This document shows positions 27,958 to 42,498 of a stretch of 64,000 nucleotides of DNA, piece after piece. The stretch lies in the NCBI GenBank assembly GCA_963556065.3, contig CAUVYH020000001.1:8446-72445 (forward strand). The letters are read 5' to 3'. Each line of letters opens with the position of its first letter. The first letter of the stretch is position 1. The stretch is from Bacteroidales bacterium. GTDB taxonomy: Bacteria; Bacteroidota; Bacteroidia; Bacteroidales; WCHB1-69. Below the pieces are notes generated by a model. That model was given only the letters and a program-made list of their open reading frames with translations, had not been told where the DNA came from and did no database searches. A program made the position numbers and the translations under genes.

Positions 27958-29400
27958 CTATTCAACCGTGATTTGTGATTCGATTATTTTTTTATTGAAG
28001 TTTTTCAAGGCTTCGTTTGGAAACTGTGATGTGCTACAACCACTTAAACAACCGCCTTTACAGGCCATGATCTCCACAAATCCCGTCGGCTTGTTAGCCG
28101 ATGTGGCGTAACTTTTCAGCAAGCGAAGACTCTTTTTATCCAAACCATCCACAAGCTGTGTCTCCGCTCCGGAATCCAGCGACTTAATGGCTTCGCACAC
28201 GCCCCCGGCTTTTGCGTAACCATGCGATAACCGGTTGCTCGAAGTCTCACAGTTATATTCGTCGGTATCTCCGATGGAAATTCCCCATCCATCCATCCAG
28301 CAAACCAGCTCTTCGAAGGTGATTACATAATCGATGAACTCCGAGTCCTGTCCTTCTTTCCGCTTGGCAACACACGGACCTACAAAAACAATCCCGTTTT
28401 CCGGCCGATTTTTTTTCGCCCACTGTGCCGTCAATTCCATGGGAGATGGCGTGTGAGAAACAAACGGCTTGATCTCCGGAATGGCTTTGTCAGCCGCCAT
28501 CATCCAGGACGGACAACAGGAGCTGGTCATAAACGGATCCCCGTTCCCTCGTCTTTCCTGCAACTCATCGCCTTCCTTGGCCGTGGTCATATCAGCCCCT
28601 AAGGCAACATTCACCACCTGATCGAACCCCAGCGCCTTTATCGCGCCAAAGACAAGGGCATCCGAAGAGGAAAACTGTCCGGAAACAGAAGGAGCGACCA
28701 GGGCCGTATATTTTACTCCTCGTTTTATCTCGTTCATCAAGGTAAAGAGTTGGGTGGTTTCGTTGATTGAACCAAAAGGACAAGCATTGATGCATTTTCC
28801 GCACAAAATACATTTTTCCTGATCGATATACTCGATTCCTTTGTCGTCTTTTCGGATCGCATTTACCGGGCAAACCTCTTCACAAGGAATTGGCATATAT
28901 ACAATTGAGTGATAAGGACATAACTCCTTGCAAATTCCACAACTCACGCATTTATCCGGATTAATTTCCGCTTTCCCCTGGCTGTTTCTGGTGATTGCTT
29001 TTTTCGGGCAATTGAGCTCGCAAGGATGGGCAATACATCCTTTACAAAGATTGGTGACAATATAGTTTGACTTCACACAGGAGGTACAAGCTTCGTCCAC
29101 CACGGTCAGAAAACGACTTGGCGTATGATTTCCGGATAATGCTTGCGCCATATATTCGGACAATGGGGTCAATTCATCGGTTTCCTCTTCGAGCCCGAAG
29201 CCCAAAAGCGCCATAATCTTATATTTTGCCACCGCCCGCTGTTTGTACTTACAGCATCGGTCGGTAGCATCTCCGGCGCGCTTACTGATTTCGATGGGGA
29301 TTCGGTCGATTAGCTGGAAAATCTGATCTTCTTTGAACAACTTCACCATACGGGTAATCAGCTCCCTGCGTATGATCATCGTGTTGTTTACAAATGCCAT
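27958..29400 (-). CDS. Monomeric [FeFe]-hydrogenase, group-B type (catalytic candidate)
   Basis: The track start at 29493 is TTG and overlaps adhE; ATG 29400 gives MAFVNNTMIIRRELITRMVKL.... Several ferredoxin-type Cys clusters (CVSCGICKELCP, CILCGKCINACP). H-cluster motifs L1 TSSCCPSW, L2 GPCVAKRKE, L3 EIMACKGGCLSG. No PAS domain. Confidence 0.85.
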   Translation of the reverse strand: MAFVNNTMIIRRELITRMVKLFKEDQIFQLIDRIPIEISKRAGDATDRCCKYKQRAVAKYKIMALLGFGLEEETDELTPLSEYMAQALSGNHTPSRFLTVVDEACTSCVKSNYIVTNLCKGCIAHPCELNCPKKAITRNSQGKAEINPDKCVSCGICKELCPYHSIVYMPIPCEEVCPVNAIRKDDKGIEYIDQEKCILCGKCINACPFGSINETTQLFTLMNEIKRGVKYTALVAPSVSGQFSSSDALVFGAIKALGFDQVVNVALGADMTTAKEGDELQERRGNGDPFMTSSCCPSWMMAADKAIPEIKPFVSHTPSPMELTAQWAKKNRPENGIVFVGPCVAKRKEGQDSEFIDYVITFEELVCWMDGWGISIGDTDEYNCETSSNRLSHGYAKAGGVCEAIKSLDSGAETQLVDGLDKKSLRLLKSYATSANKPTGFVEIMACKGGCLSGCSTSQFPNEALKNFNKKIIESQITVE

Positions 29401-29471
29401 GATTTTATGTTTTTTGAAACCCGGCTCCACCAAAAGTGATGGAACCCGGTTTGAATTATTAATACTATGTT

Positions 29472-32129
29472 TTATTGCTCTTTGCTTCCCCAAGCTTTGA
29501 TATACATCTCCTTAATCTCCCCAATGGAGGGATAGCGGGGATTAGCACCCGTGCACTGGTCATCAAAAGCCAATTCGGAGATCCTATCCAACGAAGCGAA
29601 GAACTCGTCTTTATCAACCCCGGCTTCCCGGATGGATGCCGGAATATTTACCGCAGTTTTCAATTCGGAGATGGCGTGAATCAGGTTTTCAAGTTTTTCT
29701 TCGTTGCTTTTTCCGCCAAAACCAAGGTAATCGGCCATACGGGCGTACCGTTCGATGACATTCGGGAACTTGTACTGAGGGAAGGTGGCCTGTTTGCGAG
29801 GGACATCCGTAGCATTGAAACGAATGGTCTGTTCAATCAAAAGCGCATTGGCCAATCCATGGGCAACATGAAATTCAGATCCCAACTTGTGCGCCATCGA
29901 GTGATTTACACCTAAAAAGGCATTGGCAAAAGCAATTCCTGCGAGATTGGAAGCATAGTGCATCTTTTCACGAGCCATCGGATTCTTTGCCCCTTGGTGA
30001 TAGGATGCCGGTAAATATTTGAAAATTAACCGGGCGGCTTCGAGCGCATACGGTGTCGTATATTCGGTGGCATACACCGAAACCAATGCTTCCAGCGCAT
30101 GCGTGAGGGCATCTATTCCCGACCAGGCAGCCAGCTGTTTGGGCATCGTCATCACAAAATCTGGATCGATAATGGCCATATTCGGCGTTAGCTGATAATC
30201 GGCGATTGGATATTTGATTCCGGTTTTTTCATCGGTGACCACAGCGAAAGGAGTCACTTCGGAACCCGTTCCGGATGTCGTCGGAATGGCCACCATCATC
30301 GCTTTCTTGCCCAATGAAGGAAACTGGTAGATTCGTTTGCGGATATCCATAAACCGAAGGGCCAATCCTTCAAATTCAACATCGGGGTATTCGTACATCA
30401 GCCAGATAATTTTGGCTGCATCCATGGGTGAGCCCCCGCCTAATGCGATAATCACATCCGGTTGAAAACCATTGATGGCCAAAACCCCCTTGTTGATGTT
30501 TGCCAACGTCGGATCCGGATCAATATCTTGGAATACGGCGGTTTCGATTCCCATTTTGGCAAGATACGAAATCAATTTATCGGTGTAACCTAAAGAAAAG
30601 AGGGCTTTATCAGTCACGATGAATGCTTTTTTCTTTCCCTGAAGTTCGGTTAGTGCGATGGGCAAACAGCCCGGTTTGAAAAATATTTTTGGAGGTACCT
30701 GAAGCCACAACATGTTTTCTCTTCTTTCTGCGTTCGTTTTTATATTGATCAAATGTTTAATTCCTACGTTTTCGCTCACCGAGTTACCGCCCCATGAGCC
30801 ACATCCGAGCGTAAGTGACGGATCAAGGCGGAAGTTGTAAATATCCCCGATTGCCCCTTGCGATGCCGGCATATTCACGAGCAATCTCCCGGTAGGGATC
30901 AGTCCTCCGAAAGATTCCACCCGATCGGTATTGCCGGGATTGGTGTAGAGCACCGAGGTGTGGCCAATTCCACCAAACTGCACCAGACGGATGGCTTTCA
31001 ACTCCGCTTCTTTGAATTCTTTAGCCCGATACATGGCCAGCACCGGAGAGAGTTTTTCGTAAGTAAACGGTTCGTTCTCCGATATTTCGGAAGCTTCCCC
31101 AATCAACACCTTGGCTGTTTTCGGAACCGAAACCCCGGCCATTTCCGCGATCTTCCATGCCGGTTGTCCCACGATGGCCGCATTCAGATGCCCATTGTTG
31201 ATGATGCAACGGCCGACTTTCTCTTTTTCCTCGTCATTGAGCACATACGCCCCATTGGCGATAAATTCGCGCTTCACCTCATCGTAAACCTCATCTACCA
31301 CCACGACCGATTGTTCGGACGCACAAATCATCCCGTTGTCGAACGTTTTGCTCATCAAAACAGAGCACACCGCCATCTTAAGATTTGCCGTTTCATCGAT
31401 GATGGCCGGGGTATTGCCGGCCCCCACACCAATGGCGGGAATGCCTGAAGAATAGGCGGCTTTAACCATTCCCGGGCCGCCGGTGGCTAAAATCAGGTTG
31501 ATGCTTTTGTGATGCATCAGAAATTGGGAAAGTTCAACCGTCGGGTTTTCAATCCAGCCAATGATATCCGCAGGAGCTCCCGCGGCCACCGCCGCATTCA
31601 AAACAATACGAGCCGCTTCAATGGTTGATTTTTGAGCTTTGGGATGTGGGGAGAAGATAATCCCGTTCCGGGTTTTTAAGCTGATTAATGCTTTAAAAAT
31701 GGTCGTTGATGTTGGGTTTGTGGTTGGAACAATCCCTGCAATAAGGCCAATGGGTTCTGCAAATTTACGAATACCGTATGTCTGATCATCTTCAATCAAT
31801 CCGCAGGTTTGCTCATCTTTATATTTGTTGTAGATGTATTCCGAAGCAAAGTGGTTTTTTATCACTTTATCCTCTACAATTCCCATCCCGGTTTCTTCCA
31901 CGGCCATTTTTGCTAGATGAATTCGTTGTCCGGCGGCCGCAAATGCGGCTTTGGCAAAGATCTCATCCACCTGTTTCTGCGAAAATGTACGAAATACTTT
32001 CTGGGCACGCACCACCCGTTGTATCATCTGTTCCACTTTTTCAATCTCCGGATTTGCATAGGTTACGGATTCTATCGTTTGGTTTTTTTCTTGAATTTCA
32101 GAACCTTCTATATTTTTCTTAGCACTCAT
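29472..32129 (-). CDS. adhE: Bifunctional acetaldehyde-CoA / alcohol dehydrogenase
   Basis: 885 aa. N-terminal ALDH domain (NGMICASEQS catalytic Cys) and C-terminal Fe-ADH domain (GGGSPMDAAK, HSMAHKLG, HGLANALL). Confidence 0.95.
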   Translation of the reverse strand: MSAKKNIEGSEIQEKNQTIESVTYANPEIEKVEQMIQRVVRAQKVFRTFSQKQVDEIFAKAAFAAAGQRIHLAKMAVEETGMGIVEDKVIKNHFASEYIYNKYKDEQTCGLIEDDQTYGIRKFAEPIGLIAGIVPTTNPTSTTIFKALISLKTRNGIIFSPHPKAQKSTIEAARIVLNAAVAAGAPADIIGWIENPTVELSQFLMHHKSINLILATGGPGMVKAAYSSGIPAIGVGAGNTPAIIDETANLKMAVCSVLMSKTFDNGMICASEQSVVVVDEVYDEVKREFIANGAYVLNDEEKEKVGRCIINNGHLNAAIVGQPAWKIAEMAGVSVPKTAKVLIGEASEISENEPFTYEKLSPVLAMYRAKEFKEAELKAIRLVQFGGIGHTSVLYTNPGNTDRVESFGGLIPTGRLLVNMPASQGAIGDIYNFRLDPSLTLGCGSWGGNSVSENVGIKHLINIKTNAERRENMLWLQVPPKIFFKPGCLPIALTELQGKKKAFIVTDKALFSLGYTDKLISYLAKMGIETAVFQDIDPDPTLANINKGVLAINGFQPDVIIALGGGSPMDAAKIIWLMYEYPDVEFEGLALRFMDIRKRIYQFPSLGKKAMMVAIPTTSGTGSEVTPFAVVTDEKTGIKYPIADYQLTPNMAIIDPDFVMTMPKQLAAWSGIDALTHALEALVSVYATEYTTPYALEAARLIFKYLPASYHQGAKNPMAREKMHYASNLAGIAFANAFLGVNHSMAHKLGSEFHVAHGLANALLIEQTIRFNATDVPRKQATFPQYKFPNVIERYARMADYLGFGGKSNEEKLENLIHAISELKTAVNIPASIREAGVDKDEFFASLDRISELAFDDQCTGANPRYPSIGEIKEMYIKAWGSKEQ

Positions 32130-32154: not shown

Positions 32155-32415
32155 CTATAATTTTTCCAACATGTCAATGATCTTTTGCACACTGGCTTCG
32201 CTCATCAGCGTTCCGTTGATTTCGGCATACGGCGGTTTCGGGTCTTCGCCTAGTTCGTTGCAACCCAGGCAAACGGAAGCTTCCACGGTTACTTTTTGCG
32301 CCAACTGTGGAGGAAGCTTGGTTTTGAGTTCGCGGAGTTCGTGCCCACCCATTACATAACAATAGGTTCCTACGCAGATCTTGATTTTGATTGGATTTTC
32401 GGTTTTCTTTTCCAT
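32155..32415 (-). CDS. Thioredoxin-like [2Fe-2S] ferredoxin (NuoE/HndA-like), variant Cys spacing
   Basis: 86 aa. Cys pattern C-x4-C-x29-C-x2-C (ICVGTYC ... CLGC). 15 nt after the PP2C gene and 25 nt before adhE. Confidence 0.75.
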   Translation of the reverse strand: MEKKTENPIKIKICVGTYCYVMGGHELRELKTKLPPQLAQKVTVEASVCLGCNELGEDPKPPYAEINGTLMSEASVQKIIDMLEKL

Positions 32416-32430: not shown

Positions 32431-33627
32431 TTAGATATAGGTTATTTTTACTTTTTTTAAATATTTTTCTTCCAGTAATTGGGCAATTCGTTTAACCACA
32501 TTTCTCCTGATTTCGAGCTCTACCGGTAAACAGGGATCCTGATGCGCTTCGTTGATGCGGGTTCCGATCACCAAATCAATCACATCGGATGTGGAAATCA
32601 GATTATAAAGCTGAATGGCGGGATTGCTTGAGTGTATAGATTTTAAACTCTTTTTATCGAGCAATTCACTCAACGAGCCAAGGGTAAGAATCCCTTCGGT
32701 AACCAGATCCACACCAACCATCGTCCCCGACGGCGGCAATTCAAAATCGGGAGCATCCATATTGATGATGATTTCCTGATTGAGTTCGCGTGCAATGATT
32801 GAAGAGGTGGTTCCGCCACAGATGACCTTTTTCCCATTATAAGTCCTAACGATTTCAGCGAGTTCCATATCGTTGGTTTTGTTATACGGGGGTCCCGAGC
32901 AGATAAGCAAACAACGTGGCCGGCGCATGTATATCACCGCACAGGTGGTGTCGTCTTTCGCCTTATTGTTATCATTTATAAGCGATTGATCAACTATCTG
33001 TTGAGCCAATTCGTGCGCGGAGATATGGGGCTTTTTTTGCAATATTTTTTCAACAAACTCAACAATTCCGGATTCTTCCCATCCGAAGGGGTACTCTTTT
33101 TGCCCGATTCCCGACTGGTTTACGCCGTCGCTATAAAAGATCAGCCGGTCGCCTTCCTGCATTTTAAAATTGGAGAGTCGGATCTTTTTTTGAATGTGAT
33201 CGGTTTCGATATCGAGGCTCTTTTTCTCTATTTGAATCGGATTGCCCTTACGGAAATAGACAAACGGAGGATTGTCATATTCCGCCATCTCGGTGTTTCC
33301 CTGTCTGTCGATATCTACAATGGTAAAGGTCGCATAGCTGATGTTCCGTTTGCTGTCCACCGGCAGTGTTTGCATGATCATGGTTGCCGAGCGCAGTACC
33401 GGCTCGAGCCGTTGGCGATAGTTGAGTGCCATGGAAGCCGTCATTGTGCTTAACACACTGGCTTTGATTCCGCTGCCGAGACCATCCGAAAGCACCGAGA
33501 CAAATCGGTTTTTGCCATCCACCATTTTGGTCAGAAAAGCATCTCCGCAAACCAGATTCCCGTGTTTGTTGATTTGTGAAAATCCTATTTCCACAAAAGT
33601 GCTTTCTTTATTGATCGGGCTCATCAT
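32431..33627 (-). CDS. PP2C/SpoIIE-family serine phosphatase with an uncharacterised ~160-aa C-terminal domain
   Basis: GDAF...VLSDGLGSGIKASV...FYSDGV...KDDTTCAVI metal-binding motifs. Its ATG is 1 nt after the HydS-like stop codon. Confidence 0.85.
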   Translation of the reverse strand: MMSPINKESTFVEIGFSQINKHGNLVCGDAFLTKMVDGKNRFVSVLSDGLGSGIKASVLSTMTASMALNYRQRLEPVLRSATMIMQTLPVDSKRNISYATFTIVDIDRQGNTEMAEYDNPPFVYFRKGNPIQIEKKSLDIETDHIQKKIRLSNFKMQEGDRLIFYSDGVNQSGIGQKEYPFGWEESGIVEFVEKILQKKPHISAHELAQQIVDQSLINDNNKAKDDTTCAVIYMRRPRCLLICSGPPYNKTNDMELAEIVRTYNGKKVICGGTTSSIIARELNQEIIINMDAPDFELPPSGTMVGVDLVTEGILTLGSLSELLDKKSLKSIHSSNPAIQLYNLISTSDVIDLVIGTRINEAHQDPCLPVELEIRRNVVKRIAQLLEEKYLKKVKITYI

Positions 33628-33628: not shown

Positions 33629-35383
33629 TTAGTGAGAATTTAATTCATTGTCGATATTCAAGGGCTTTTTTTGATCGTGCGACTCCAAGATAGAATTCAG
33701 CATCGATTCGGTAAAGGAGGAGTTCTCTCCCAGCAGGTAAGCAATGCGCTGAACCGCTTCGAGATTTTGTTTGATCACCTCGTGAATACGGCCGGTCATG
33801 AGCTCATGCTGGACTTCCGGCTCCGACATATCCCGGACAATGGCACAGGCCAGTCGGTATTGCAAAATATTGACAATGGTAATGTGATAAAACTTTTCCC
33901 CTTCGCGCAAATCGTGTTCAATCAGCTCTGCCTCTCCCAAAAAGATGGCGTCGAAGAACTTTTCGAACGAAATGTAGGGCCGGATATCCGTTCCCTGAAT
34001 CCCTTTTTCACTCTCAAAGATGGTATTAAACGGCTTCCCGGCGGCTTCGGCAAATTTTTGGTTGCAATCCACCACGTGGAATCGTTCGTCCACCATCACC
34101 ACCCCGTACGGCATTTTTTGCAACAACACCGAAGCCTTATCCTGAGCCACTTTCCTCATGTACGACACACACATGATCCGGTTTGCTTTCCCATCGAGTA
34201 ATGCTTGCGCAAACTCCCGGCAATTATCGTAACCGCATCCGGCACAATTCAGTTCATCCTTTTTGGAAAACTTTCCCAAGCCATGCATGATTTCAGTAAT
34301 CTCATCTTCGGGATAAACACATTGAATCACCGGCAACAACGAATATTGCTCGGAAAGTTCCGCCCTCGTCATTTTTCGTTCAGCCGTTATCTCCGATGTT
34401 TTTTTGCTTTGCTGCGCATATTTTTCGATTTTCAGTTTATGAAGCAACGGGGTTTTGTTTGTTACCGCCGGACCGTTGATGCATCCACCATTACAAGCCA
34501 ACAGTTCTAAAAATATTTTCTCGGAAACGTTGCTTTCGTCTAACTCTTCGATAATTGATTTCACGCTTTTCATTCCGGAAAAACTGTATGATTTTACCTT
34601 TGCATCCCCCAGTTCTTGATTGATTCCGGTTACCATTCCGCCCTCAATTGGATATAACAGCGGAGCTTCTTCCAATTCGCTTGCGGTTAAGCCGAAGTTG
34701 CGATCCGGTTCAAATGATTCAAAATCAATTCGACTCTCTTCGAACCATTCCAAGAGTTCGGTATAGGTCAAGGCCGCATCAATCGCTGATTTATGATAAA
34801 TCATTTCCTGTTTTTTGGCCACGCAAGGTCCGATGAACGCGATAAAAGCATTTTCGCCATACTCCTTGCGAAGCAAACGGGCATGCGCTTCCACTGGCGA
34901 AACCACCGGTATGATGCTTGAAGCCAACTGCGGGTGATATTTGACAATTAGATTAACCACGACCGGACAGCAACTGGAAATATGGATGTTTTTCGTGGAA
35001 TTTCGGACGTAATCGGCTGAAAACCGGGTAACCAGTTCCGCCCCAACGGCCGTTTCCTCAACTACAGAGAACCCCAGATTATAAAGCGCTTTAAACATCG
35101 TTGCTTTTTGAACACTTCCAAATGAGCTCACCCAAGAAGGGGCAAGCGAGGCAATCATTTTTTTGCCTTGTTTCAACGCTAATTTCACCGACGGCAAATC
35201 GGCTCTGTAATGTTTCGCCTTTGCCGGACAAGCCCCCAAGCATTTTCCACAATAAATACACAAATCTTCAATTACGGAGGCGCTGTTATCCTCTATTTTG
35301 ATGGCTTTTACCGGACATTCGCGAATACAACGGTAACAATCCACACAATTGTTTTTTTCGGTGTAAATTACGGAGCGATTCAT
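33629..35383 (-). CDS. HydS-like putative sensory [FeFe]-hydrogenase (2x[4Fe-4S] + H-domain + extra Cys4 motif + PAS)
   Basis: CVDCYRCIRECP and CIYCGKCLGACP. H-cluster motifs ISSCCP, GPCVAKKQE and ELLACNGGCINGP (L2 Met replaced by Gly, L3 Met replaced by Leu). CAGCGYDNC-x16-C (Cx2Cx4Cx16C). C-terminal PAS-like region (GVVMVDERFHVVDCNQKFAEAAG). Confidence 0.85.
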   Translation of the reverse strand: MNRSVIYTEKNNCVDCYRCIRECPVKAIKIEDNSASVIEDLCIYCGKCLGACPAKAKHYRADLPSVKLALKQGKKMIASLAPSWVSSFGSVQKATMFKALYNLGFSVVEETAVGAELVTRFSADYVRNSTKNIHISSCCPVVVNLIVKYHPQLASSIIPVVSPVEAHARLLRKEYGENAFIAFIGPCVAKKQEMIYHKSAIDAALTYTELLEWFEESRIDFESFEPDRNFGLTASELEEAPLLYPIEGGMVTGINQELGDAKVKSYSFSGMKSVKSIIEELDESNVSEKIFLELLACNGGCINGPAVTNKTPLLHKLKIEKYAQQSKKTSEITAERKMTRAELSEQYSLLPVIQCVYPEDEITEIMHGLGKFSKKDELNCAGCGYDNCREFAQALLDGKANRIMCVSYMRKVAQDKASVLLQKMPYGVVMVDERFHVVDCNQKFAEAAGKPFNTIFESEKGIQGTDIRPYISFEKFFDAIFLGEAELIEHDLREGEKFYHITIVNILQYRLACAIVRDMSEPEVQHELMTGRIHEVIKQNLEAVQRIAYLLGENSSFTESMLNSILESHDQKKPLNIDNELNSH

Positions 35384-35386: not shown

Positions 35387-35644
35387 TTAGGCTTTTAGGA
35401 TTGAAAAATGAGAGTCCAGCAAGGATTCAATCATATCGGGATTCACGTGATAATAGGCCTTCCCGGCAATTGCAATGACGGGACCGTTAATACAGTCTCC
35501 AGCACACAGATGACCCCGAAAATCAATCTCTGCTTTCAGTTGGTGCTCCTCAATATAGGCCTTCATGATTTCAAGCACCCGGTCGTTCCCTCTTGCGAAA
35601 CAAGAGCTGCCCAAACATATTCGAATTTCAATTGTCGTTTTCAT
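35387..35644 (-). CDS. Thioredoxin-like [2Fe-2S] ferredoxin (HfsA/NuoE-like)
   Basis: ATG 35644 gives MKTTIEIRICLGSSC.... Cys pattern C-x4-C-x31-C-x3-C. Its stop is 3 nt before the HydS-like ATG. Confidence 0.8.
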   Translation of the reverse strand: MKTTIEIRICLGSSCFARGNDRVLEIMKAYIEEHQLKAEIDFRGHLCAGDCINGPVIAIAGKAYYHVNPDMIESLLDSHFSILKA

Positions 35645-35651: not shown

Positions 35652-35669
35652 TTGTTATTTGTTTCACAA
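35652..35669. promoter_or_regulatory. Rex-box-like palindrome in the leader of the Fd-HydS operon
   Basis: TTGTTAT-TTGT-TTCACAA compared with the Rex consensus TTGTGAA-N4-TTCACAA (Clostridial variant TTGTTAA-N4-TTAACAA). Lies 8-25 nt upstream of ATG 35644. Confidence 0.35.
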
Positions 35670-35682: not shown

Positions 35683-35699
35683 AGCCAAAGAACATGCCA
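35683..35699 (-). promoter_or_regulatory. Candidate sigma-54 (-24/-12) promoter of the Fd-HydS-PP2C-Fd-AdhE-hydrogenase operon
   Basis: Minus strand 5'-TGGCATGTTCTTTGGCT-3' compared with TGGCAC-N5-TTGCW. GG and TTG are correctly spaced, but the -12 C is G. Lies 55 nt upstream of the ATG. No TAnnTTTG box was seen in this intergenic region. Confidence 0.4.
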
Positions 35700-35863
35700 T
35701 ATAGTATATATTATTGATTTACTGTTTGTTACATCCATTTTTAGGAAACATTAAATCCATTAAGTGTCATATTTCAATACAGTTTTTAATCCGGTAATGT
35801 TCACAAATAGTACAGTGGTAGATATTAGGACATTTTGACAGATAAACAAATCATACCCGAAAG

Positions 35864-35891
35864 CAAAAAAGCCACCGGAATAAACCAATGG
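35864..35891 (-). terminator. Rho-independent terminator after the first operon
   Basis: Minus strand CCAUUGG-UUUAUU-CCGGUGG (7 bp including 2 G.U) followed by CUUUUUUG. Lies 62 nt after the stop of the 35953..36201 ferredoxin. Confidence 0.5.
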
Positions 35892-35952: not shown

Positions 35953-36201
35953 TTACCGGGAGAGGTGTTTGTCGAGCAACGGAACCACCTCTTCCGGCGA
36001 TACTTTTTCGCAGCGAACGCCATTGATAACAATCACGGGGCCTTTCATGCAAAGGCAGGTACATAATATCCCCTTCACTTCCAAGGAGACTTCCAACGGG
36101 TTGGTCTCCGCATATTTCCGGATGATTTCCAGATTGTGATTGTTTCCTCTGGCATAACATGAGCTTCCCATGCAAACCACCACGTTGTTTGATGCAGACA
36201 T
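35953..36201 (-). CDS. Thioredoxin-like [2Fe-2S] ferredoxin
   Basis: ATG 36201 gives MSASNNVVVCMGSSC.... Cys pattern C-x4-C-x31-C-x-C-x-C. Starts 1 nt after the Rex-like stop codon. Confidence 0.75.
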   Translation of the reverse strand: MSASNNVVVCMGSSCYARGNNHNLEIIRKYAETNPLEVSLEVKGILCTCLCMKGPVIVINGVRCEKVSPEEVVPLLDKHLSR

Positions 36202-36202: not shown

Positions 36203-36856
36203 TTACACGAGTTGATTTTTGATTTGTTCCATCGACTTGATGAGATCATTCGGGTTTAAAATCGGCGTATTGATCATTGTCAGACCCTCTGGGAAATTCA
36301 TAATAGGCTTGGCCAGATTCCAAACCAGTTTCACCCCATGCTCCGACATCTGCAAAACCAGTTTTTTGGCAACATCAAGGTCAACGAAAGGAGCAATTAT
36401 TGCCCGTTCAATGTGTAATCTCTCTGTTAAATCCGTGATTTTAGAAATCGGATTAATAATAAAATCCGCTCCCATTTTTGGATTTTCGGAAGCACTATTG
36501 TCAAAAAAAGCGGAGATTGTCAAATCAATATTGGCCTCTATTTGGGCTTTATTCTGAATGTACCAGGCAATGTTCCCAATATATATAAACTCGTTCTCAT
36601 GATTAAACCCCAATAGTTTTTCGATACTATCGATCATGAACTGCGTGTTTGTAATCCCCAATACCGGATCAATGGCTGCGGTGTATAACAAATCGTCGAG
36701 AACCATCTGCTTTGTATAGCTCAGCTCCTCGGCAATCCGTTCGGCAGAGACATAACTGCGATTTTGTAATATGGCAAATCTTAAAAAATTCAGATAAGCC
36801 CTCATTCTCCTCAAGGTTGGAAGAGGTATTGCTTCATGACTTTTTTTCGTTTTCAT
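36203..36856 (-). CDS. Divergent Rex-like (winged-helix + Rossmann-like) putative redox-responsive regulator
   Basis: ATG 36856 gives MKTKKSHEAIPLPTLRRMRAYLNFLRF...VSAERIAEEL..., which is collinear with the Rex N-terminus (IP.AT.KRLPLYYR.L...VSS.ELA). The Rossmann GxGxxG position reads IYIGNIAWY. The C-terminus (VWNLAKPIMNFPEGLTMINTPIL) resembles Rex ILNFAP..L.VP..V.V. Confidence 0.55.
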   Translation of the reverse strand: MKTKKSHEAIPLPTLRRMRAYLNFLRFAILQNRSYVSAERIAEELSYTKQMVLDDLLYTAAIDPVLGITNTQFMIDSIEKLLGFNHENEFIYIGNIAWYIQNKAQIEANIDLTISAFFDNSASENPKMGADFIINPISKITDLTERLHIERAIIAPFVDLDVAKKLVLQMSEHGVKLVWNLAKPIMNFPEGLTMINTPILNPNDLIKSMEQIKNQLV

Positions 36857-38247
36857 CGGATTTAATATTAGGTTTCTTAATATACTGATCGATTGCATCC
36901 GCTGCTTTTTTACCCGCACCCATGGCCAGAATAACGGTTGCCGCACCGGTCACCACATCCCCTCCTGCAAACACCCCGCGCCGGGAAGAGTTGCCGTCTT
37001 CATCGGCAACCAGGCATCCATGAGCATTGGTGATCATCCCTGGCGTCGTATTGCTGATCAAGGGGTTGGGTGTGGTACCGAGCGACATGATCACGGTATC
37101 CGCTTCAATTTCGAATTCGGAATCGGGCTTGATCACCGGTTTTCTTCGTCCAGATTCATCGGGCGATCCCAGTTCCATCTGAATGCAGTGAATGGATTTC
37201 ACCCAGCCTTGTTCCGTCCCCTCGATGGATGTAGGATTCGACAAGAATTGAAATTTAATCCCTTCCTCTTTGGCATGATGAACCTCTTCTTTGCGAGCCG
37301 GCAATTCCTCTTCGGAACGACGATACACCACACTGGTCTCCGCCCCCAGTCGTCGGGCTGTCCGAGCCGCATCCATGGCCACGTTTCCACCACCGACCAC
37401 CACCACTCTCCGTCCGGTGAAAATCGGGGTGTCATAACCATGATCATACGCCCTTCATGAGATTGTTCCGGGTCAGGAACTCATTGGCGGAAACCACGCC
37501 GTTCAGGTTTTCCCCAGGAATGTTCATAAACTTGGGCAACCCTGCGCCACTGGCCACATATACCGCTGAATACCCTTCTTCCTTTAATAGCTGGTCAATG
37601 GTGATTGTTTTACCAATAACCACATCTTTTTCGATGATCACCCCCAAATTTGTGATGTTCTTGATTTCATGCTTTACCACCGTATCTTTCGGGAGTCTGA
37701 ATTCCGGAATTCCATATTGCAAGACACCACCGGCTTTATGCAAGGCTTCGAAGATCTTTACCGAATATCCTTTTTTGGCCAAATCGCCGGCACAGCTCAA
37801 TCCCGAAGGCCCGCTTCCGATAACCGCGACTTTATAACCATTCGGCTGAATGGCTTCGGACAGATTCAACGGATGTTCTCGAGCCCAATCGCCAATAAAC
37901 CGTTCCAGTTTTCCGATTGCGACCGGTTCCCCTTTTCGTCCCAGAATGCAGTCTCCCTCACATTGGATTTCTTGCGGACATACTCTGCCACAAATAGCAG
38001 GCAAGGCGGAGTCACGGGCAATTACCCGGGCCGCCTGTTCAAAGTTTCCGGTTTTTATGTGCGCGATAAATTCGGGAATATTAATGGAGACGGGGCATTT
38101 GGAAACACACAGCGGCTTTTTGCAGTTCAGGCAACGCGAGGCTTCAGCAATCGCTTCCTCTTGGTTGTATCCCAAGCTCACCTCGTCAAAGTTCTTCACC
38201 CTTATTTCGGGGGACTGTTCCCGGCAGGGAATCCTGTTTTTATTCAT
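36834..38247 (-). pseudogene. NfnB / SudA / GltD-like NADPH-dependent oxidoreductase (glutamate synthase small-chain family), split by a 1-nt homopolymer insertion
   Basis: Track ORFs 37444..38247 and 36834..37406 are two halves of one gene. The N-terminal half has two Cys clusters (CLNCKKPLCVSKCP, CGRVCP...CEGDC) and GSGPSGLSCAG. Removing one G from the GGG run (plus-strand CCC 37451-37453) reads ...[36 protein letters not shown]..., for about 470 aa in total. Confidence 0.85.
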
Positions 38248-39130
38248 GACTAACTCCTCCTATATGGCAAATATGACCTTCCATCAGCTCTGCAAATTCA
38301 ATCGCTTTTCGCCCTTCAATGGTTTTGTACATATTCTGACGCCGCATGGCTTCCTCGTAATTGATCAAATGGGCATCGAACTCCGGCCCATCAATACAGG
38401 TGAATTTGGTTTGTCCGCCAACCGTCACCCGGCAGGCTCCGCACATTCCCGTGCCGTCCACCATCAACGAATTCAAACTGGCGATGGTCGGAATATTGAA
38501 CTTTTGGGTCATCATGGCCACATATTTCATCATAATCATCGGTCCAATGGTGATCACCCGAGAGTAGTTGATTTCAAGGCGAAGCAAACGTTCCAGAATG
38601 TGGGTCACCAGCCCTTTTTCACCATACGAACCGTCATCGGTACAGACAAAGACTCGATTCGCATGTTGGCTTAACTCCTTCAGCAGCACAAGATTCTGAG
38701 CCGATTTTGCGCCGATAATCAAATCCGCTTTAACCCCTTTTTCAAGATGCAGCCACTTGAGCTGCGGCAATATTGGAGCCACGCCAACCCCGCCGGCGAC
38801 AAAAAGCAACTTCTCCTGTTTGAACCGATCATCGCTCCAGTGAATAAAATCAGAGGGGCATCCGAGGGGACCGGTAAAGTCCATGAAATAGTCACCAACT
38901 TCGAATTGCGCCATTTTTTGGGAAGACATGCCCACCACCTGAAAGACAATGGTCACAGATCCGGTTTCTTTATCGTAATCCACAATGGTTAGAGGGATCC
39001 GCTCCCCTTTCTCGTCGGGGATCACGATGATAAATTCTCCAGGATTGGCGCTTCGGGCGATTCTTGGCGCCTCAATTTCCATCAGGAAGATGTCTGGAGA
39101 TAATACCTCTTTTTTCAATATTTTGAACAT
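38240..39130 (-). CDS. NfnA / SudB-like FAD/NAD(P)-binding [2Fe-2S] subunit (sulfide/dihydroorotate dehydrogenase-like)
   Basis: ATG 39130 gives MFKILKKEVLSPDIFLMEIEAP.... FNR-like fold (GERIPLTIVDY, LLFVAGGVGVAPI). C-terminal Cys cluster GMCGACRV...C. Overlaps the GltD-like gene by 8 nt. Confidence 0.85.
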   Translation of the reverse strand: MFKILKKEVLSPDIFLMEIEAPRIARSANPGEFIIVIPDEKGERIPLTIVDYDKETGSVTIVFQVVGMSSQKMAQFEVGDYFMDFTGPLGCPSDFIHWSDDRFKQEKLLFVAGGVGVAPILPQLKWLHLEKGVKADLIIGAKSAQNLVLLKELSQHANRVFVCTDDGSYGEKGLVTHILERLLRLEINYSRVITIGPMIMMKYVAMMTQKFNIPTIASLNSLMVDGTGMCGACRVTVGGQTKFTCIDGPEFDAHLINYEEAMRRQNMYKTIEGRKAIEFAELMEGHICHIGGVSHE

Positions 39131-39197: not shown

Positions 39198-40364
39198 TTA
39201 GAAGTCAACTTTTGTACCGTAATAAATACTGGTCAGGACTTGTTTCATCTCTTCAACCGAAGTCGGCCTTGGATTTGAGCCGGTACAAGCATCAGCCACG
39301 GCATTTTCTGCAATATAATTCAGGTTTTCCTTAAAATCACTTTCGGTAATGCCATACTCTTTCAAGGATAGAGGAATATCCAACTGCAAGTTCAATTTCT
39401 TGATGCTGGCTACCAACGCCTTGGTAAGTTCCATATCGGTTTCACCTTTCAAATTGAGCATGCGGGCGATTTTCGCAAACCGGTCGGCACATACTTTTGA
39501 ATTGAACTCGATGACATACGGCAGATAAATGGCATTGGCACATCCGTGAGGAATGTGGAAGATCGCCCCGGTTTTGTGAGCCAAGCTGTGAACAATTCCC
39601 AGCAACGCGTTGGAAAAAGCCATACCTGCCAAACATTGGGCAATATGCATCTGGGCACGGGCCTGGTTATCACCGGCATACGATTTTATGAGATTATCAT
39701 AAATCATGTCGATGGCATGCATGGCCAAAGGATCGGAAAAATCGGAATGCAAGCCGGCCACATACGCTTCAATGGCATGGGTAAGCGCATCCATCCCGGT
39801 ATGGGCGGTCAGCTGTTGGGGCATCGTTTCCGCCAGTTTGGGATCTACAATGGCGATATCCGGCGTGATGTTGAAATCGGCCAACGGATATTTTATTCTG
39901 AGCTTATAATCGGTGATCACCGAAAAGGCTGTGACTTCCGTAGCCGTGCCACTCGTGGACGGAATCGCCACAAAACGGGCTTTCTGCCTCAATTCGGGTA
40001 AGTTGAACGGGATAACGGCTTCCTGGAAGGTGAACTCCGGATATTCGTAAAAAATCCACATGGCCTTGGCGGCATCAATTGGAGAGCCTCCGCCCATGGA
40101 GACGATCCAATCGGGCTGGAACTTACGCATCGCTTCCGCTCCGCGCATCACGGTTTCTACGGATGGATCGGGTTCCACTCCTTCAAAAAGTTCAACTTCC
40201 ATTCCGGCTTCCTTCAAATAATTTACGGCCTGGTCTAAAAATCCGAAACGTTTCATCGATCCGCCCCCGACAACGAGGATTGCTTTTTTTCCTTTTAGGT
40301 TTTTCAATTCTGCGAGACTTCCTTCTCCGAAGTAAATGTCTCTGGGTAATGTAAATCTTGACAT
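39198..40364 (-). CDS. Iron-containing (group III) alcohol dehydrogenase, butanol/1,2-propanediol dehydrogenase-like
   Basis: ATG 40364 gives MSRFTLPRDIYFGEGSL.... Motifs GGGSPIDAAK, HTGMDALTHAIEAY, HSLAHKTG...HGCANAI. Confidence 0.9.
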   Translation of the reverse strand: MSRFTLPRDIYFGEGSLAELKNLKGKKAILVVGGGSMKRFGFLDQAVNYLKEAGMEVELFEGVEPDPSVETVMRGAEAMRKFQPDWIVSMGGGSPIDAAKAMWIFYEYPEFTFQEAVIPFNLPELRQKARFVAIPSTSGTATEVTAFSVITDYKLRIKYPLADFNITPDIAIVDPKLAETMPQQLTAHTGMDALTHAIEAYVAGLHSDFSDPLAMHAIDMIYDNLIKSYAGDNQARAQMHIAQCLAGMAFSNALLGIVHSLAHKTGAIFHIPHGCANAIYLPYVIEFNSKVCADRFAKIARMLNLKGETDMELTKALVASIKKLNLQLDIPLSLKEYGITESDFKENLNYIAENAVADACTGSNPRPTSVEEMKQVLTSIYYGTKVDF

Positions 40365-40400
40365 ATTCTTTTTTTTAATTTGTTGTTTGGGAATCCATAA

Positions 40401-40417
40401 AGTCAATCGCCATGCCA
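40401..40417 (-). promoter_or_regulatory. Candidate sigma-54 (-24/-12) promoter of the ADH-Nfn-Rex-like-Fd operon
   Basis: Minus strand 5'-TGGCATGGCGATTGACT-3'. It shares the TGGCATG-N4-TTGRCT pattern with 35683..35699. Lies 53 nt upstream of ATG 40364. The -12 C is A. Confidence 0.4.
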
Positions 40418-40423
40418 CAGATT

Positions 40424-40446
40424 GTATCACACTGTATTTGTGATAC
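40424..40446. promoter_or_regulatory. Inverted repeat GTATCACA-N7-TGTGATAC (candidate operator/UAS)
   Basis: Perfect 8-bp arms read directly from the sequence. Lies 7 nt upstream of the sigma-54-like element and downstream of the sigmaA-type promoter candidate. Confidence 0.35.
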
Positions 40447-40459
40447 TTACAAAGATTAG

Positions 40460-40492
40460 CAAATTTACATGTGTTATATATTAGGACACAAA
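40460..40492 (-). promoter_or_regulatory. Bacteroidetes sigmaA-type promoter candidate (TTTG-N21-TAAATTTG)
   Basis: On the minus strand, TTTG is at 40492-40489 and TAAATTTG at 40467-40460, matching the -33 TTTG / -7 TAnnTTTG consensus. This is an alternative to the sigma-54 model for the ADH operon. Confidence 0.4.
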
Positions 40493-40536
40493 ACAAAAAG
40501 AACACTGTCCCGGAATAAGACAGTGTTCTTTTTTAT
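40491..40536. terminator. Strong bidirectional Rho-independent terminator after the sigma-54 activator gene
   Basis: AAGAACACTGTC-CCGGAATAA-GACAGTGTTCTT (12-bp perfect stem) flanked by A-rich and T-rich runs on both sides. Confidence 0.75.
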
Positions 40537-40572
40537 GACAACATAAAGATGGATGTAGGAATTCCGAATCGG

Positions 40573-42498
40573 CTATTCTATGGGAATATCATATTTCTTC
40601 ACCTTGAGATAAAGTGTATTTCGGCTGATTCCGAGACTTTTGGCCACCTTGCTCATGTTTTTTTCGCAGAGTTGTATGGCTTCGGCAATCGCTTGTTTTT
40701 CGAGATCTTCGAGGGTTACCACCCGATTTTTCGCGATACGGGGTGTATCTTCAGCAATTTCATGTTGAATCACAATGGGTTGGGCATGAATGCTCATGTC
40801 GGAAATATGCTCATCGAAACGCAGTTTTCCGTTCAGGTTCACCGCTTTCTCCACAAAGTTTTCGAGTTCTCGGATATTTCCAGGCCATTCGTACTCCTTC
40901 ATGCTTTTGATCATGTCGGGAGGCAACGAAATCGGCACCCGGTTGAGTTTTTTGGCTTTATGAACGAGGAAAAACGAAATCAGATCCTCCACATCCTCAG
41001 GGCGTTCCCGCAAAGGAGGCAGGACGATCGGGATCACGCTCAGCCGGTAAAACAGGTCGAGCCGGAAATTCCCTTTTTCGATCTCCTCCTTGAGATTCTT
41101 ATTGGTTGCGGCAATAATCCGGACATCCACCGGAATCACCTTGTTGCCGCCTACACGAGTGATGACGCCTTCCTGGAGCACCCGCAATATCCGCACTTGC
41201 ATATCAACCGGCATCTCCCCGATTTCATCCAGGAAAAGGGTTCCCTTGTTGGCAAGTTCAAATTTCCCGGCTTTTCCCCCTTTTCTGGCTCCGGTAAACG
41301 CCCCTTCGTCGTATCCGAACAGCTCGCTCTCGATGAGCGTTGGAGGAATGGCGCCGCAGTTGATGGCCACAAATCCGTTGTTCACCCTGTTGCTGGCATT
41401 ATGGATAGCTTGGGCAAGCACCTCTTTTCCCGTGCCGCTTTCGCCCGTGATCAAGATGGTGGAAGGACTGTCGGATATGCTTCGGGCGTATTCCTTCACC
41501 CACCGGATTTCCTTGCTGCGCCCGATAATATCGTCGAAAGTATAGTGGGCGTGCATCCCGGTGTATTTGTTCACCAGATTGAAAATCGCCCCAATCTCCT
41601 TAAACGTCACCAGCAACCCATACAGCTCCTGATCGTTTTTTTTGAGCGGATAGGCGTTCACGTTAAACTTCTCCGGCTTGCCGTTGACTTTGATCAGGAG
41701 TTCCACATCTCTTCCCATCTGACCGCTGATGATTTTATCGCGCATATTCTTCCAATCCGGAATCAGATCCGAGATGTCCTTTTGGATCAATAACTCCTTG
41801 GGACATTGGAGCATTTTTGACGCCGCCTCATTCATCCGCTTGATATTCCCCGTAAGATCCGTACTGATGATTCCGGAGGAAATCGTGTTCATCACCGCAT
41901 ACACATAATCATAGGCCTCTTCAATCCGTTGATGGATGGTTTCGGTGCGCATTTCGCTCTCAATCGCCTTCACCGCCGAAACCACCAGTCCGAGGGTATG
42001 GGGATGGACATCCTCGCTTTTTCCGGTAAGATTCAACGTCCCCAGCAGTTGCCCCCTGAAATCATGGATTGGCGCCGCCGAGCAGGTCAAGGTTTGATAT
42101 GCCGAGATAAAATGCTCCGAAGCCGTGATCTGAACTGGGGCGTCTTCGCTGATGGCCGTTCCCATGGCATTGGTCCCCACGTTGTCTTCGCTCATCTGGG
42201 AGCCGATGGTGATTTTTATCTTCTTCGCCTCCGCCACCACTTCGTCGTCGCCATAAATCAGCAACAGCACTCCATCCCGATCCGTAAGGGCGATCAAGTA
42301 ACCGCTTCCCTTCAAAAAGGTGTACAATTCGGAAATATGAGGCTTCACCGTTTCAATCAACGCTTTATTCCGGATCAAGATCTGCTGCAAATCAGTGCCT
42401 TCAAAATTCGTTTTTGAATAAAGCCTGTTTTGTATCACCCCAAACTGCTTGCTTCGTAGATGCGATTGTTCAATAATATCGTCATGTTCATTCACCAT
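40573..42498 (-). CDS. Sigma-54-dependent transcriptional activator (GAF-PAS-AAA+-Fis HTH; AcoR/AdhR-like)
   Basis: Walker A GESGTGKE, the sigma-54 contact loop GAFTGA, Walker B LFLDEIGE, R-finger region, and C-terminal HTH NMSKVAKSLGISRNTLYLKVKKY. The N-terminal ~300 aa is GAF- and PAS-like. Confidence 0.92.
   Translation of the reverse strand: MVNEHDDIIEQSHLRSKQFGVIQNRLYSKTNFEGTDLQQILIRNKALIETVKPHISELYTFLKGSGYLIALTDRDGVLLLIYGDDEVVAEAKKIKITIGSQMSEDNVGTNAMGTAISEDAPVQITASEHFISAYQTLTCSAAPIHDFRGQLLGTLNLTGKSEDVHPHTLGLVVSAVKAIESEMRTETIHQRIEEAYDYVYAVMNTISSGIISTDLTGNIKRMNEAASKMLQCPKELLIQKDISDLIPDWKNMRDKIISGQMGRDVELLIKVNGKPEKFNVNAYPLKKNDQELYGLLVTFKEIGAIFNLVNKYTGMHAHYTFDDIIGRSKEIRWVKEYARSISDSPSTILITGESGTGKEVLAQAIHNASNRVNNGFVAINCGAIPPTLIESELFGYDEGAFTGARKGGKAGKFELANKGTLFLDEIGEMPVDMQVRILRVLQEGVITRVGGNKVIPVDVRIIAATNKNLKEEIEKGNFRLDLFYRLSVIPIVLPPLRERPEDVEDLISFFLVHKAKKLNRVPISLPPDMIKSMKEYEWPGNIRELENFVEKAVNLNGKLRFDEHISDMSIHAQPIVIQHEIAEDTPRIAKNRVVTLEDLEKQAIAEAIQLCEKNMSKVAKSLGISRNTLYLKVKKYDIPIE

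Follow-up and report, generated by a model that had tools for sequence, protein, structure and literature searches.

The 64,000-nucleotide stretch of Bacteroidales DNA analysed here (contig CAUVYH020000001.1, positions 8,446 to 72,445; hereafter the window) carries twelve co-directional genes on its minus strand, running from 42498 to 27958. They encode a sigma-54 activator, enzymes of ethanol and H2 formation, a putative H2-sensing hydrogenase (HydS) with a PP2C phosphatase as its partner, and a Rex-like protein. We propose that these genes make up a sigma-54-dependent regulon through which fermentative reductant is disposed of, and that they correspond, in the most complete form, to the Ruminococcus albus and Thermoanaerobacterium hfs systems in Bacteroidota. 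It is likely that the three-unit architecture is a conserved one and that both multi-gene operons are controlled by the activator and sigma-54 RNA polymerase. The step from HydS through the phosphatase to the activator is more tentative, and we would give it rather less than an even chance.

Organization of the gene cluster

Domain searches with Pfam and NCBIfam agree with a preliminary description of this DNA, made from the letters and the open reading frames (ORFs) alone, in placing twelve co-directional genes with the domains that it named at 27958-42498 on the minus strand. We predict three transcription units set apart by two strong terminators, as had also been proposed; the predicted terminators are the two best minus-strand terminator matches of the scan. 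Unit 1 is the gene for the activator, an enhancer-binding protein (EBP), alone, with a housekeeping-type promoter and a terminator of its own. Unit 2 encodes, in order, an iron-containing alcohol dehydrogenase (Fe-ADH), NfnA, NfnB, a degenerate Rex paralogue and a ferredoxin (Fd1). Unit 3 encodes a second ferredoxin (Fd2), HydS, the PP2C phosphatase, a third ferredoxin-like protein (Fd3), the bifunctional AdhE and a group B [FeFe]-hydrogenase. The enzyme assignments of the preliminary description (Fe-ADH, NfnA, NfnB/GltD-like, AdhE and the hydrogenases) are backed by Pfam and NCBIfam scores.

Several genes are over-extended in the ORF list. Relatives and alignments place the true, internal starts of Fe-ADH at 40364, NfnA at 39130, the Rex-like gene at 36856, Fd1 at 36201, Fd2 at 35644 and the terminal hydrogenase at 29400; with this last start, the spacing between adhE and the hydrogenase gene is ~71 nt instead of an overlap. 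Genes for hydEFG, a Ser/Thr kinase or STAS proteins were identified neither in the cluster nor, outside it, among window ORFs of at least 220 amino acids, the size range that the scan covered, in agreement with what had been stated before.

The activator (40573-42498, minus strand, as are all features of the cluster given below; 641 amino acids) has a GAF-PAS-AAA+-HTH_8 architecture (Pfam GAF, PAS, Sigma54_activat and HTH_8), with 235.5 bits to PF00158 and 45.6 bits to HTH_8. The GAFTGA motif and a Walker A motif (GESGTGKE) are readable in its translation. It is not an equivalog of any named EBP, the best NCBIfam scores being those to DhaR (409 vs a cut-off of 551) and PrdR (402 vs 795). The consensus of the -7 promoter element in Bacteroidota is TAnnTTTG, and a box of this type (TAATTTTG, 42519-42526) lies ~20 nt upstream of the ATG of the activator gene, inside a block (AAAAGAGTGTAaTTTTG) that is invariant in the window and in two related loci (L010 and L011; handles of this form denote the loci compared). 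An intrinsic terminator with a 17-bp stem followed by a T-run, the top match of the scan, lies after the gene (40495-40533), and its hairpin is kept in L010, L011 and L013.

Sigma-54 promoters and enhancer sites before both operons

The regulatory picture drawn in the preliminary description overlooked the sigma-54 promoters and enhancer sites in front of the two operons, elements that connect units 2 and 3 with the activator. The -24/-12 boxes, P2 before unit 2 (TGGCATGGCGATTG, 40404-40417) and P3 before unit 3 (TGGCATGTTCTTTG, 35686-35699), lie ~40-55 nt upstream of the first start codon of the respective unit. TGGCAY-N5-TTG has no further match in the window, and for each of the two the strand is the correct one. 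An alignment of four close loci shows the box, TGGCAT-N5-TTG(A/G), conserved in both long intergenic regions; the P2 core is invariant in L010, L011 and L013, and P3 is conserved in the same three. Equivalent boxes precede the first structural gene in L014, L015, L016 and L017 (upstream of Fe-ADH in L014, L015 and L017). The L016 box, at the place equivalent to P3, is the full consensus (TGGCACGTTCATTGC), and near-consensus variants are present in L018 and L020.

Candidate enhancer sites lie upstream of each box. For unit 2 they are TGTCATAAAAAAGAACA (40524-40540) and TGTCCTAATATATAACA (40472-40488), together spanning 40472-40540; for unit 3 they are TGTCCTAATATCTACCA (35816-35832) and TGTCATATTTCAATACA (35765-35781), spanning 35765-35832. 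The pattern TGTCMT-N8-ACA has 4 matches in the 64 kb vs 0.81 expected, three of them inside the two regulatory regions; the fourth, at 46756, is inside an ORF for a cargo protein of the type IX secretion system (T9SS) and was taken as chance. An exact 11-mer (TGTCCTAATAT) occurs in the window only upstream of unit 2 and unit 3, and two perfect palindromes of the same type (TGTCATTTTTCATGACA and TGTCATTAATTATGACA) are found in L017. These sites belong to the motif class of AdhR-type activators, TGT-N10-12-ACA (PMC6615313).

Unit 2 ends in an intrinsic terminator after Fd1 (35872-35891), the second-best minus-strand match, which is conserved in relatives. A scan for sigma-70-type promoters found 17 vs 23 expected; Bacteroidota use a different consensus. 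Rfam identified nothing in the cluster, and no known riboswitch or small RNA in the leaders.

Conservation of gene order and modular versions in relatives

Synteny had been named beforehand as the test that could refute a meaningful association of these genes, and we found the gene order to be conserved. The complete 12-gene order recurs in four other contigs, all metagenomic and from three sources, with HydS identities to the window of 97% (L010), 87% (L011/L012) and 78% (L013). The flanking aminotransferase and OmpA genes are also common to these close contigs.

Modular sub-versions, at 43-48% HydS identity, are present in long contigs and complete genomes of Bacteroidales. Tenuifilum thalassicum (L014; CP041345.1) encodes EBP / FeADH-NfnAB-Rex-Fd-HydS-PP2C-Fd-HydB, and L015 the same without the EBP (FeADH-NfnAB-Rex-Fd-HydS-PP2C-Fd-HydB). 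The order is EBP / Fd-HydS-PP2C-Fd-AdhE-HydB in L016, EBP / FeADH-x-Fd-HydS-PP2C in L017, EBP / FeADH-Fd-HydS-PP2C-Fd-HydB in L018 and EBP-NhaP-NfnAB-Rex-Fd-HydS-PP2C in L020; L019 has HydS-PP2C alone, and Muribaculaceae contigs have HydS-PP2C-Fd-HydB-FeADH. Thus (Fd-)HydS-PP2C is the invariant core across the Bacteroidales loci examined, around which Fe-ADH, NfnAB, Rex, AdhE and the group B hydrogenase are interchangeable cargo. The GAF-PAS activator gene is directly upstream in 5 of the 7 distant long-contig loci (L014, L016, L017, L018 and L020). Among the distant loci the EBP is 46-52% identical, in step with HydS (43-44%) and PP2C (49-52%). No kinase gene was seen in the window or in any Bacteroidota locus examined.

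The window holds the maximal version of this design, which resembles an operon of the L014/L015 type fused in tandem with one of the L016 type; Fd1, an additional ferredoxin that evolves fast, may mark the junction. The sequences themselves are not new, as the cluster sits in public genomes such as that of T. thalassicum (CP041345.1); the novelty is in the interpretation.

HydS and its phosphatase partner

HydS (33629-35383; 584 amino acids) is a HydS/HfsB-like putative sensory [FeFe]-hydrogenase of group C (M2f type). The preliminary description had predicted a sensor of this type with a PP2C partner, and the domain architecture agrees. Pfam identified two Fer4 domains (residues 7-56), Fe_hyd_lg_C (168.8 bits) and PF04060 (33.8 bits; residues 378-406). 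The PAS assignment is marginal, with PAS_8 at 21.9 vs a cut-off of 21.8 when the C-terminal part was scanned alone, and the full PAS_9 profile matching that part with E = 0.013. HydS conforms to the group C/M2f architecture, which comprises two N-terminal [4Fe-4S] clusters, an extra C-terminal [4Fe-4S] site and a PAS domain (PMC13104023). All cysteine ligands of the H-cluster are present (SSCCP, GPCVAKKQE and LLACNGGC), in motifs that align to the TSCCP, MPCxxK and MACxGGC of solved hydrogenases. Sensory enzymes have a second-sphere signature in which M353 is changed to a small residue, M497 is not conserved and C299 is often replaced (PMC10055695). The equivalents of M353 and M497 are Gly and Leu in HydS, and the proton-relay position equivalent to C299 is still Cys, which is kept in 17% of sensory enzymes (PMC10055695). 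As a putative sensor, HydS would signal H2 with low catalytic turnover. An exact database look-up of the window HydS returned no record.

The phosphatase (32431-33627; 398 amino acids) is an HfsC-like, two-domain SpoIIE/PP2C protein (PF07228, 57.5 bits). Its AF2 model has a pLDDT of 86, and the N-terminal domain resembles structures of SpoIIE, RsbU and RsbX (E = 2e-15; Foldseek matches include 5mqh with E = 2.3e-15 and 3pu9 with a TMt of 0.79). Residues D29, D48, D167 and D225/D226 are invariant in 38 homologues. With these aspartates and the modelled SpoIIE/RsbU fold, the enzyme is probably active. The C-terminal α/β domain (residues 236-398; 32431-32928) is highly conserved; Gly, Pro, Asp, His and Gln are invariant at many of its positions, and it also occurs in the phosphatase associated with HydS in R. 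albus. This domain (pLDDT 86) has no Pfam match at E = 10 and no PDB fold at E <= 1e-3; STAS, kinase and receiver identities for it were dropped because no Pfam or PDB relative was found. On present comparisons it appears to be a domain of unknown function that is specific to HydS-partner phosphatases.

The Rex paralogue and the operator in the leader of unit 3

The Rex-like protein (36203-36856; 217 amino acids) aligns over its full length to Rex structures (5zz5, E = 8.6e-6) and is below every NCBIfam Rex cut-off (best 73.7 vs 130). Pfam gives Put_DNA-bind_N (27.9 vs 27) and no CoA_binding match. The GxGxxG loop is missing, in that two residues are deleted where Rex of Thermotoga maritima has GAGNIG, leaving --GNIA. 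The basic (Arg/Lys) DNA-contact residues have been lost from the recognition helix and wing, where QMVLDDLLYTAAIDPVLG aligns with QIRKDL...FGxxGxxG. Relatives in L003 and L014 retain GAGSLG and GAGPIA, and more canonical versions are encoded at the same position in L003, L014, L015 and L020. Only 5 relatives of the window protein were found in 5.8e9 proteins. The earlier reading of this protein as an NAD(P)H sensor is doubtful in view of the shortened Rossmann loop, the lost basic recognition residues and the scores below the Rex cut-offs. The same reading had set the activator, HydS and the Rex-like protein side by side as three types of sensor: the three genes are present, and as independent types of sensor they remain putative.

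A candidate Rex-type operator (TTGTGAAACAAATAACAA, 35652-35669) lies in the leader of unit 3, between P3 and the start of Fd2. It is the only match in the window to the Rex consensus at <=1 mismatch; at <=2 mismatches the consensus is not enriched window-wide (5 matches vs 3.7 expected). The core TGTKAA-N4-ATAACA has 2 matches in the window vs 0.09 expected, the second of which, at 22451, is antisense within a CHAT-domain ORF and was taken as chance. The operator is invariant in L010, L011, L012 and L013, and it is seen again in the leader of L014 and, equivalently placed, in L016 (TTGTTAATCAAATAACAA, 9620-9637). L016 carries it yet has no Rex gene in the locus.

Rex-type operators also lie upstream of the EBP gene in L020 (2140-2155, a perfect TGTTAACTTCTTAACA) and L014 (2808-2823), and in these two loci Rex may, judging from the sites, control the EBP gene itself. 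No Rex-type site was seen upstream of the EBP gene in the window.

Proposed regulation and its main alternative

We predict that the activator would bind the TGTC-N-ACA enhancer sites and switch on units 2 and 3 through sigma-54 RNA polymerase. HydS would read the H2 level at its H-cluster, and its C-terminal iron-sulfur (FeS)/PAS module would set the activity of PP2C, which may be translationally coupled to HydS. PP2C would in turn modulate the activator, either directly or via an unlinked kinase/substrate pair. High H2 would then induce AdhE and Fe-ADH (converting NAD(P)H to ethanol), NfnAB (exchanging the ferredoxin, NADH and NADPH pools) and the ferredoxin-dependent group B hydrogenase. 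Operon 3 could in addition come under NADH/NAD+ control, through a repressor of the Rex family at the leader operator. Induction by H2 would agree with the behaviour of the R. albus cluster, an eight-gene unit with a 111-fold response to H2, the lower level being that reached when a partner removes the gas (Greening et al. 2019, PMC6776011). The larger idea, that HydS, the two-domain PP2C and the GAF-PAS activator make up a complete H2-to-transcription pathway in Bacteroidales with the Rex operator as a second, NADH-dependent input, is offered as a doubtful one. If true, the path from H2 to sigma-54 would give the group C [FeFe]-hydrogenase sensors their first defined output.

Other systems offer precedents. 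In Clostridium beijerinckii, the GAF-PAS EBP AdhR acts on the sigma-54 promoters of neighbouring Fe-ADH genes and activates them (PMC7017808). Some Clostridiales EBPs have a sensory region of Fer4, Fe_hyd_lg_C and FeS domains (PMC6615313), a natural fusion of a HydS-like module with a sigma-54 activator and thus a precedent for a link between HydS and the EBP. Deletion of hfsB, which encodes the HydS-like protein of Thermoanaerobacterium saccharolyticum, raises adhE expression (PMC5707799), and high ethanol yield in Thermoanaerobacterium requires hfsD, hydAB and nfnAB jointly (PMC11837493).

A number of observations weigh against the proposed regulation. The link between HydS/PP2C and the activator is suggested by conserved adjacency and by a fusion precedent from another phylum, and L015 and L019 have no adjacent EBP. 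Neither a kinase gene nor a STAS substrate is near PP2C, within the scan described above. HydS keeps the proton-relay Cys, so real catalytic turnover remains possible. The -12 element is TTGA or TTGG in this clade, not the canonical TTGC (which L016 has), and rpoN is not in the 64-kb window. Judging by its alignment, the Rex-like protein of the cluster has lost the residues with which canonical Rex binds NADH and DNA, and the leader operator may be the target of a canonical Rex from elsewhere in the genome, or of no Rex at all.

The main alternative, a substantial possibility though short of a probable one, is that the activator and HydS-PP2C are independent. The GAF-PAS EBP would sense an aldehyde- or alcohol-like small molecule or redox, as is assumed for AdhR/AcoR types, and HydS-PP2C would act post-translationally on enzymes or on an unlinked regulator, not via sigma-54. 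This alternative is favoured by the sensory domains, GAF and PAS, that the EBP has of its own (Pfam; PMC7017808), by the two loci that have HydS-PP2C without an adjacent EBP (L015 and L019) and by R. albus, where HydS-PP2C occurs with a kinase and canonical Rex and with neither an EBP nor a sigma-54 box. Changes in the adhE transcript also explain only part of the changes in enzyme activity after hfsB deletion in T. saccharolyticum (PMC5707799). Independence is harder to reconcile with the position of the EBP directly upstream of the HydS operon in five of the seven distant loci, where it has diverged in parallel with HydS and PP2C, and with the Clostridiales fusions of HydS domains to EBPs (PMC6615313). 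HydS and PP2C are, moreover, themselves under a predicted sigma-54 promoter, so they would at minimum be downstream of the EBP.

Metabolic enzymes, ferredoxins and the interrupted nfnB

The Fe-ADH of unit 2 (39198-40364; 388 amino acids; Pfam Fe-ADH and ADH_Fe_C) is 98% identical to its L010 orthologue. NfnA (38240-39130), the FAD/NAD-binding, 2Fe-2S small subunit, scores 374.6 bits with NF004862 (cut-off 220) and matches chain S of Pyrococcus furiosus NfnI (5jca) over its full length with 263 bits. The intact L010 orthologue of NfnB, the large subunit, matches chain L of the same structure at full length with 501 bits, and chains A and B of 4ylf are also strong matches to NfnA/NfnB.

The window nfnB (36834-38247), described before as one gene, is interrupted by a frameshift that had been overlooked: its ORFs (37444-38247 and 36834-37406) are in different frames, split by a private 1-nt insertion in a GGG run at 37451-37453 (GAAGGGCG vs GAA-GGCG in relatives). 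The gene is intact in L010, L011 and L013. A programmed frameshift was rejected because the relatives encode the protein in a single frame. A second frameshift interrupts an ompA-family gene (24347-25655), which passes from frame 2 to frame 3 near 25509-25519, beside a CCCC run, and is intact (442 amino acids) in L010, a 97%-related contig. As ompA is an unrelated conserved gene and is likewise frameshifted beside a homopolymer, both indels are probably assembly errors, and comparison with the relatives makes this the most likely origin of the nfnB frameshift. It is unlikely that nfnB is a genuine pseudogene in a decaying unit 2, with Fd1 and the Rex-like gene degenerating too. The frameshift is present in the window sequence, and Fd1 (57-63% identity) and the Rex-like protein (67-92%) are the fastest-evolving of the cluster (HydS, 78-97%); however, both halves of nfnB are 91-94% identical to L010 with no further lesions, and the insertion within a homopolymer, like that of ompA in the same window, is typical of assembly indels.

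The three small ferredoxin-type proteins differ in their support. Fd2 (35387-35644), a thioredoxin-like [2Fe-2S] ferredoxin, scores 41.6 bits with PF01257; of the 11 upstream neighbourhoods that were complete, 10 have a ferredoxin gene directly before HydS, the exception being L019. Fd3 (32155-32415), a small 4-Cys ferredoxin-like protein, is below the cut-off (23.5 vs 24.8 bits with PF01257), has Cx4C and Cx2C motifs in its translation, and is kept between PP2C and the next gene in L002, L014, L015, L016 and L018. Fd1 (35953-36201), also a thioredoxin-like [2Fe-2S] ferredoxin (PF01257, 32.8 bits), is the last gene of unit 2 and is only 62% identical to the L010 copy in protein and ~70% in DNA, compared to 91-99% for neighbouring genes. 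Frameshifts were rejected as the cause, since Fd1 is in frame throughout; the divergent patch possibly reflects recombination or relaxed constraint on an extra ferredoxin copy.

AdhE (29472-32129; 885 amino acids) is a bifunctional acetaldehyde-CoA/alcohol dehydrogenase (NF010378, 1391.7 bits vs 951) in which both halves are present (Aldedh, Fe-ADH and ADH_Fe_C). It is 77% identical to the AdhE in the same position in L016. The terminal hydrogenase (27958-29400; 480 amino acids), in the position of HfsD/HydA2, had been assigned to a group B type, and it passes TIGR04105 (462.3 vs a cut-off of 450), a model described as 'monomeric [FeFe] hydrogenase', over profile positions 3-459 of 462. Its H-cluster motifs are TSSCCPSW, GPCVAKRKE and EIMACKGGC, and its length is 476-480 amino acids in relatives. 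A preprint gives three adjacent cysteines, TSCCCP, as the signature of subgroup B2 (bioRxiv 10.1101/2023.06.23.541094). The L1 motif of the window enzyme, TSSCCPSW, is without the third cysteine, so the enzyme is not of subgroup B2.

Between adhE and the hydrogenase gene is an intercistronic hairpin without a T-run (29417-29452; -22.6 kcal/mol, z = -4.8), which none of 200 shuffled sequences equalled in folding. It is conserved in the clade, with a compensatory change from C:G to U:A in L011. The hairpin may be an element of mRNA processing or stability, or a partial terminator that sets the ratio of AdhE to hydrogenase.

Comparison with known systems

A hydS-hydA2-adhE cluster of R. albus 7 was reportedly described by Zheng et al. 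in 2014 (see PMC5707799). The composite architecture had been thought to be undescribed, a claim that does not hold: a sensor, adhE and a catalytic hydrogenase in one operon beside a Rex gene are already known from the R. albus 7 plasmid pRUMAL01 (NC_014824.1). Direct comparison gives the order Rex-AdhE-phosphotransferase-Fd-Fd-HydS-SpoIIE phosphatase-hydrogenase for that plasmid. The two loci have in common a co-directional Rex-family gene, AdhE, two small 2Fe-2S ferredoxins, a group C PAS-HydS, a two-domain PP2C and a ferredoxin-dependent [FeFe]-hydrogenase. Identities between the window and R. albus proteins are 59% for AdhE, 35% for the hydrogenase, 33% for HydS (residues 9-568) and 33% for PP2C (residues 13-397, C-terminal domain included).

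The differences are as extensive. The R. albus locus is plasmid-borne in a member of the Bacillota, whereas the window is from Bacteroidota. R. albus has a 'phosphotransferase' (kinase) gene and a canonical Rex, and the window has no kinase gene and a degenerate Rex. There is no sigma-54 activator, -24/-12 box, Fe-ADH or NfnAB in the R. albus cluster, all of which are present in the window. In R. albus adhE precedes Fd-HydS-PP2C-hydrogenase, whereas in the window it follows HydS-PP2C and the genes form two sigma-54 operons. The catalytic hydrogenase of R. albus is reported as group A1 (PMC6776011), while the window enzyme passes the group B model. What the window adds is the predicted control by sigma-54 and an activator, a hydrogenase of group B, linkage to Fe-ADH and NfnAB, and a locus without a kinase gene.

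By gene order the cluster can also be likened to hfsABCD of T. saccharolyticum and T. thermosaccharolyticum, which encodes a small protein, the PAS-hydrogenase HfsB, the PP2C HfsC and the ferredoxin-linked HfsD. The hfs genes have a genetic tie to adhE expression and ethanol yield (PMC5707799) and depend functionally on nfnAB (PMC11837493). Whereas adhE and nfnAB share the locus here, they are unlinked to hfs in Thermoanaerobacterium, and no sigma-54 control of hfs is reported. The mechanism of hfs and the output pathway of its sensor were still called unknown in 2026 (PMC13277313).

The history of hfs raises an improbable alternative for the core of unit 3, that Fd-HydS-PP2C-Fd-HydB is a multi-subunit catalytic 'Hfs' hydrogenase in which HydS contributes to H2 turnover. 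In the original account hfsABCD was the main hydrogenase for H2 evolution in T. saccharolyticum, HfsABC is proposed to stay active without HfsD (PMC13277313), and the window HydS retains all H-cluster ligands and the Cys299-equivalent proton relay. Against a catalytic complex, HydS-PP2C occurs without an adjacent catalytic hydrogenase in L017, L019 and L020, and hfsB deletion increases hydrogenase activity (PMC5707799). The changes of M353 to Gly and M497 to Leu, the C-terminal FeS and PAS domains and the obligatory phosphatase are hallmarks of a putative sensor (PMC10055695), the role that we prefer for HydS.

The AdhR system of C. beijerinckii resembles the window, by domains and motifs, in having a GAF-PAS-AAA+-HTH activator next to an Fe-ADH gene, a -24/-12 promoter and several upstream TGT-N10-12-ACA sites (PMC7017808, PMC6615313). 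The AdhR (SigL) regulons contain adh genes only, however, and those of the window also include NfnAB, a sensory hydrogenase module, AdhE and a hydrogenase, in a different phylum. A full-text literature search found sigma-54 linked with HydS or hfs nowhere except in the domain inventory of PMC6615313. The window is also similar to Rex regulons of Firmicutes and Thermotogae: the leader of its adhE/hydrogenase operon carries a sequence resembling TTGTKAA-N4-TTMACAA, and its cluster includes a gene of the Rex family. Unlike in those regulons, the candidate operator of the window is downstream of a sigma-54 and not a sigma-70 promoter, and the cluster's own Rex paralogue is degenerate.

The terminal hydrogenase is of the same class (TIGR04105) as the group B [FeFe]-hydrogenases of gut Bacteroides (Welsh et al. 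2025, PMC12578642), which are reported as the main fermentative H2 producers in Bacteroidota and considered the main H2 producers of its gut members; their regulation is therefore of wider interest. That study (PMC12578642) gives no operon context and lists sensory hydrogenases as needing characterisation, whereas the window enzyme is in a predicted operon with a group C sensor, PP2C and AdhE.

Interspecies hydrogen transfer in guts, rumens and sediments depends on how fermenters choose between H2 and ethanol, which matters for the engineering of ethanol producers too. HydS/HfsB proteins are putative sensors that are genetically tied to this choice, with an output pathway called unknown (PMC13277313). 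A sensor and phosphatase beside a dedicated activator with its sites are concrete, mutable DNA and protein targets. The locus also physically joins nfnAB, an hfsD-like hydrogenase and adhE, the set that is jointly needed for high ethanol yield (PMC11837493).

Base composition and the surrounding window

The cluster has a GC content of 0.464 vs 0.353 in the rest of the window, and a GC content at third codon positions (GC3) of 0.45-0.62 vs 0.25-0.44. The contrast is also seen in L010 and L013 and is absent in L014, L017 and L018. Such a composition would fit an old transfer of the whole cluster from another member of the Bacteroidota into the ancestor of this small clade. No integrase, transposase, other mobile-element gene or adjacent tRNA was found at the cluster, and a donor was not identified. 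It is scarcely credible that the locus is a chance or recent juxtaposition of unrelated operons, a horizontal-transfer mosaic without shared regulation: the GC contrast suggests a foreign origin in this lineage and the window looks like a tandem union of L014/L015-type and L016-type operons, but synteny already largely refutes the idea, with an order (flanks included) that persists at identities as low as 78%, one enhancer 11-mer and one sigma-54 box type shared by both operons, same-order sub-versions across Bacteroidales, and flanks free of mobile-element genes.

The upstream aminotransferase gene (44645-45760) is likewise GC-rich (0.479; GC3 0.60). Genes for Fe-S assembly (sufB-sufC-sufD, 49856-53740) lie ~7 kb from the Fe-S-rich cluster, which is probably coincidental. 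The region 56000-62000 is AT-rich (GC 0.27-0.30) and encodes CorA, MORN-repeat and NadA proteins, and the sign of the GC skew flips sharply near 60 kb, from -0.26 to +0.17. Three proteins with Por_Secre_tail domains in the window bear out the T9SS-bearing Bacteroidota context given in the preliminary description. At 2753-5576, beside T9SS-cargo proteins, a LytS-type histidine kinase with TPRs (His_kinase domain) is paired with a LytTR response regulator; the pair is unrelated to the cluster.

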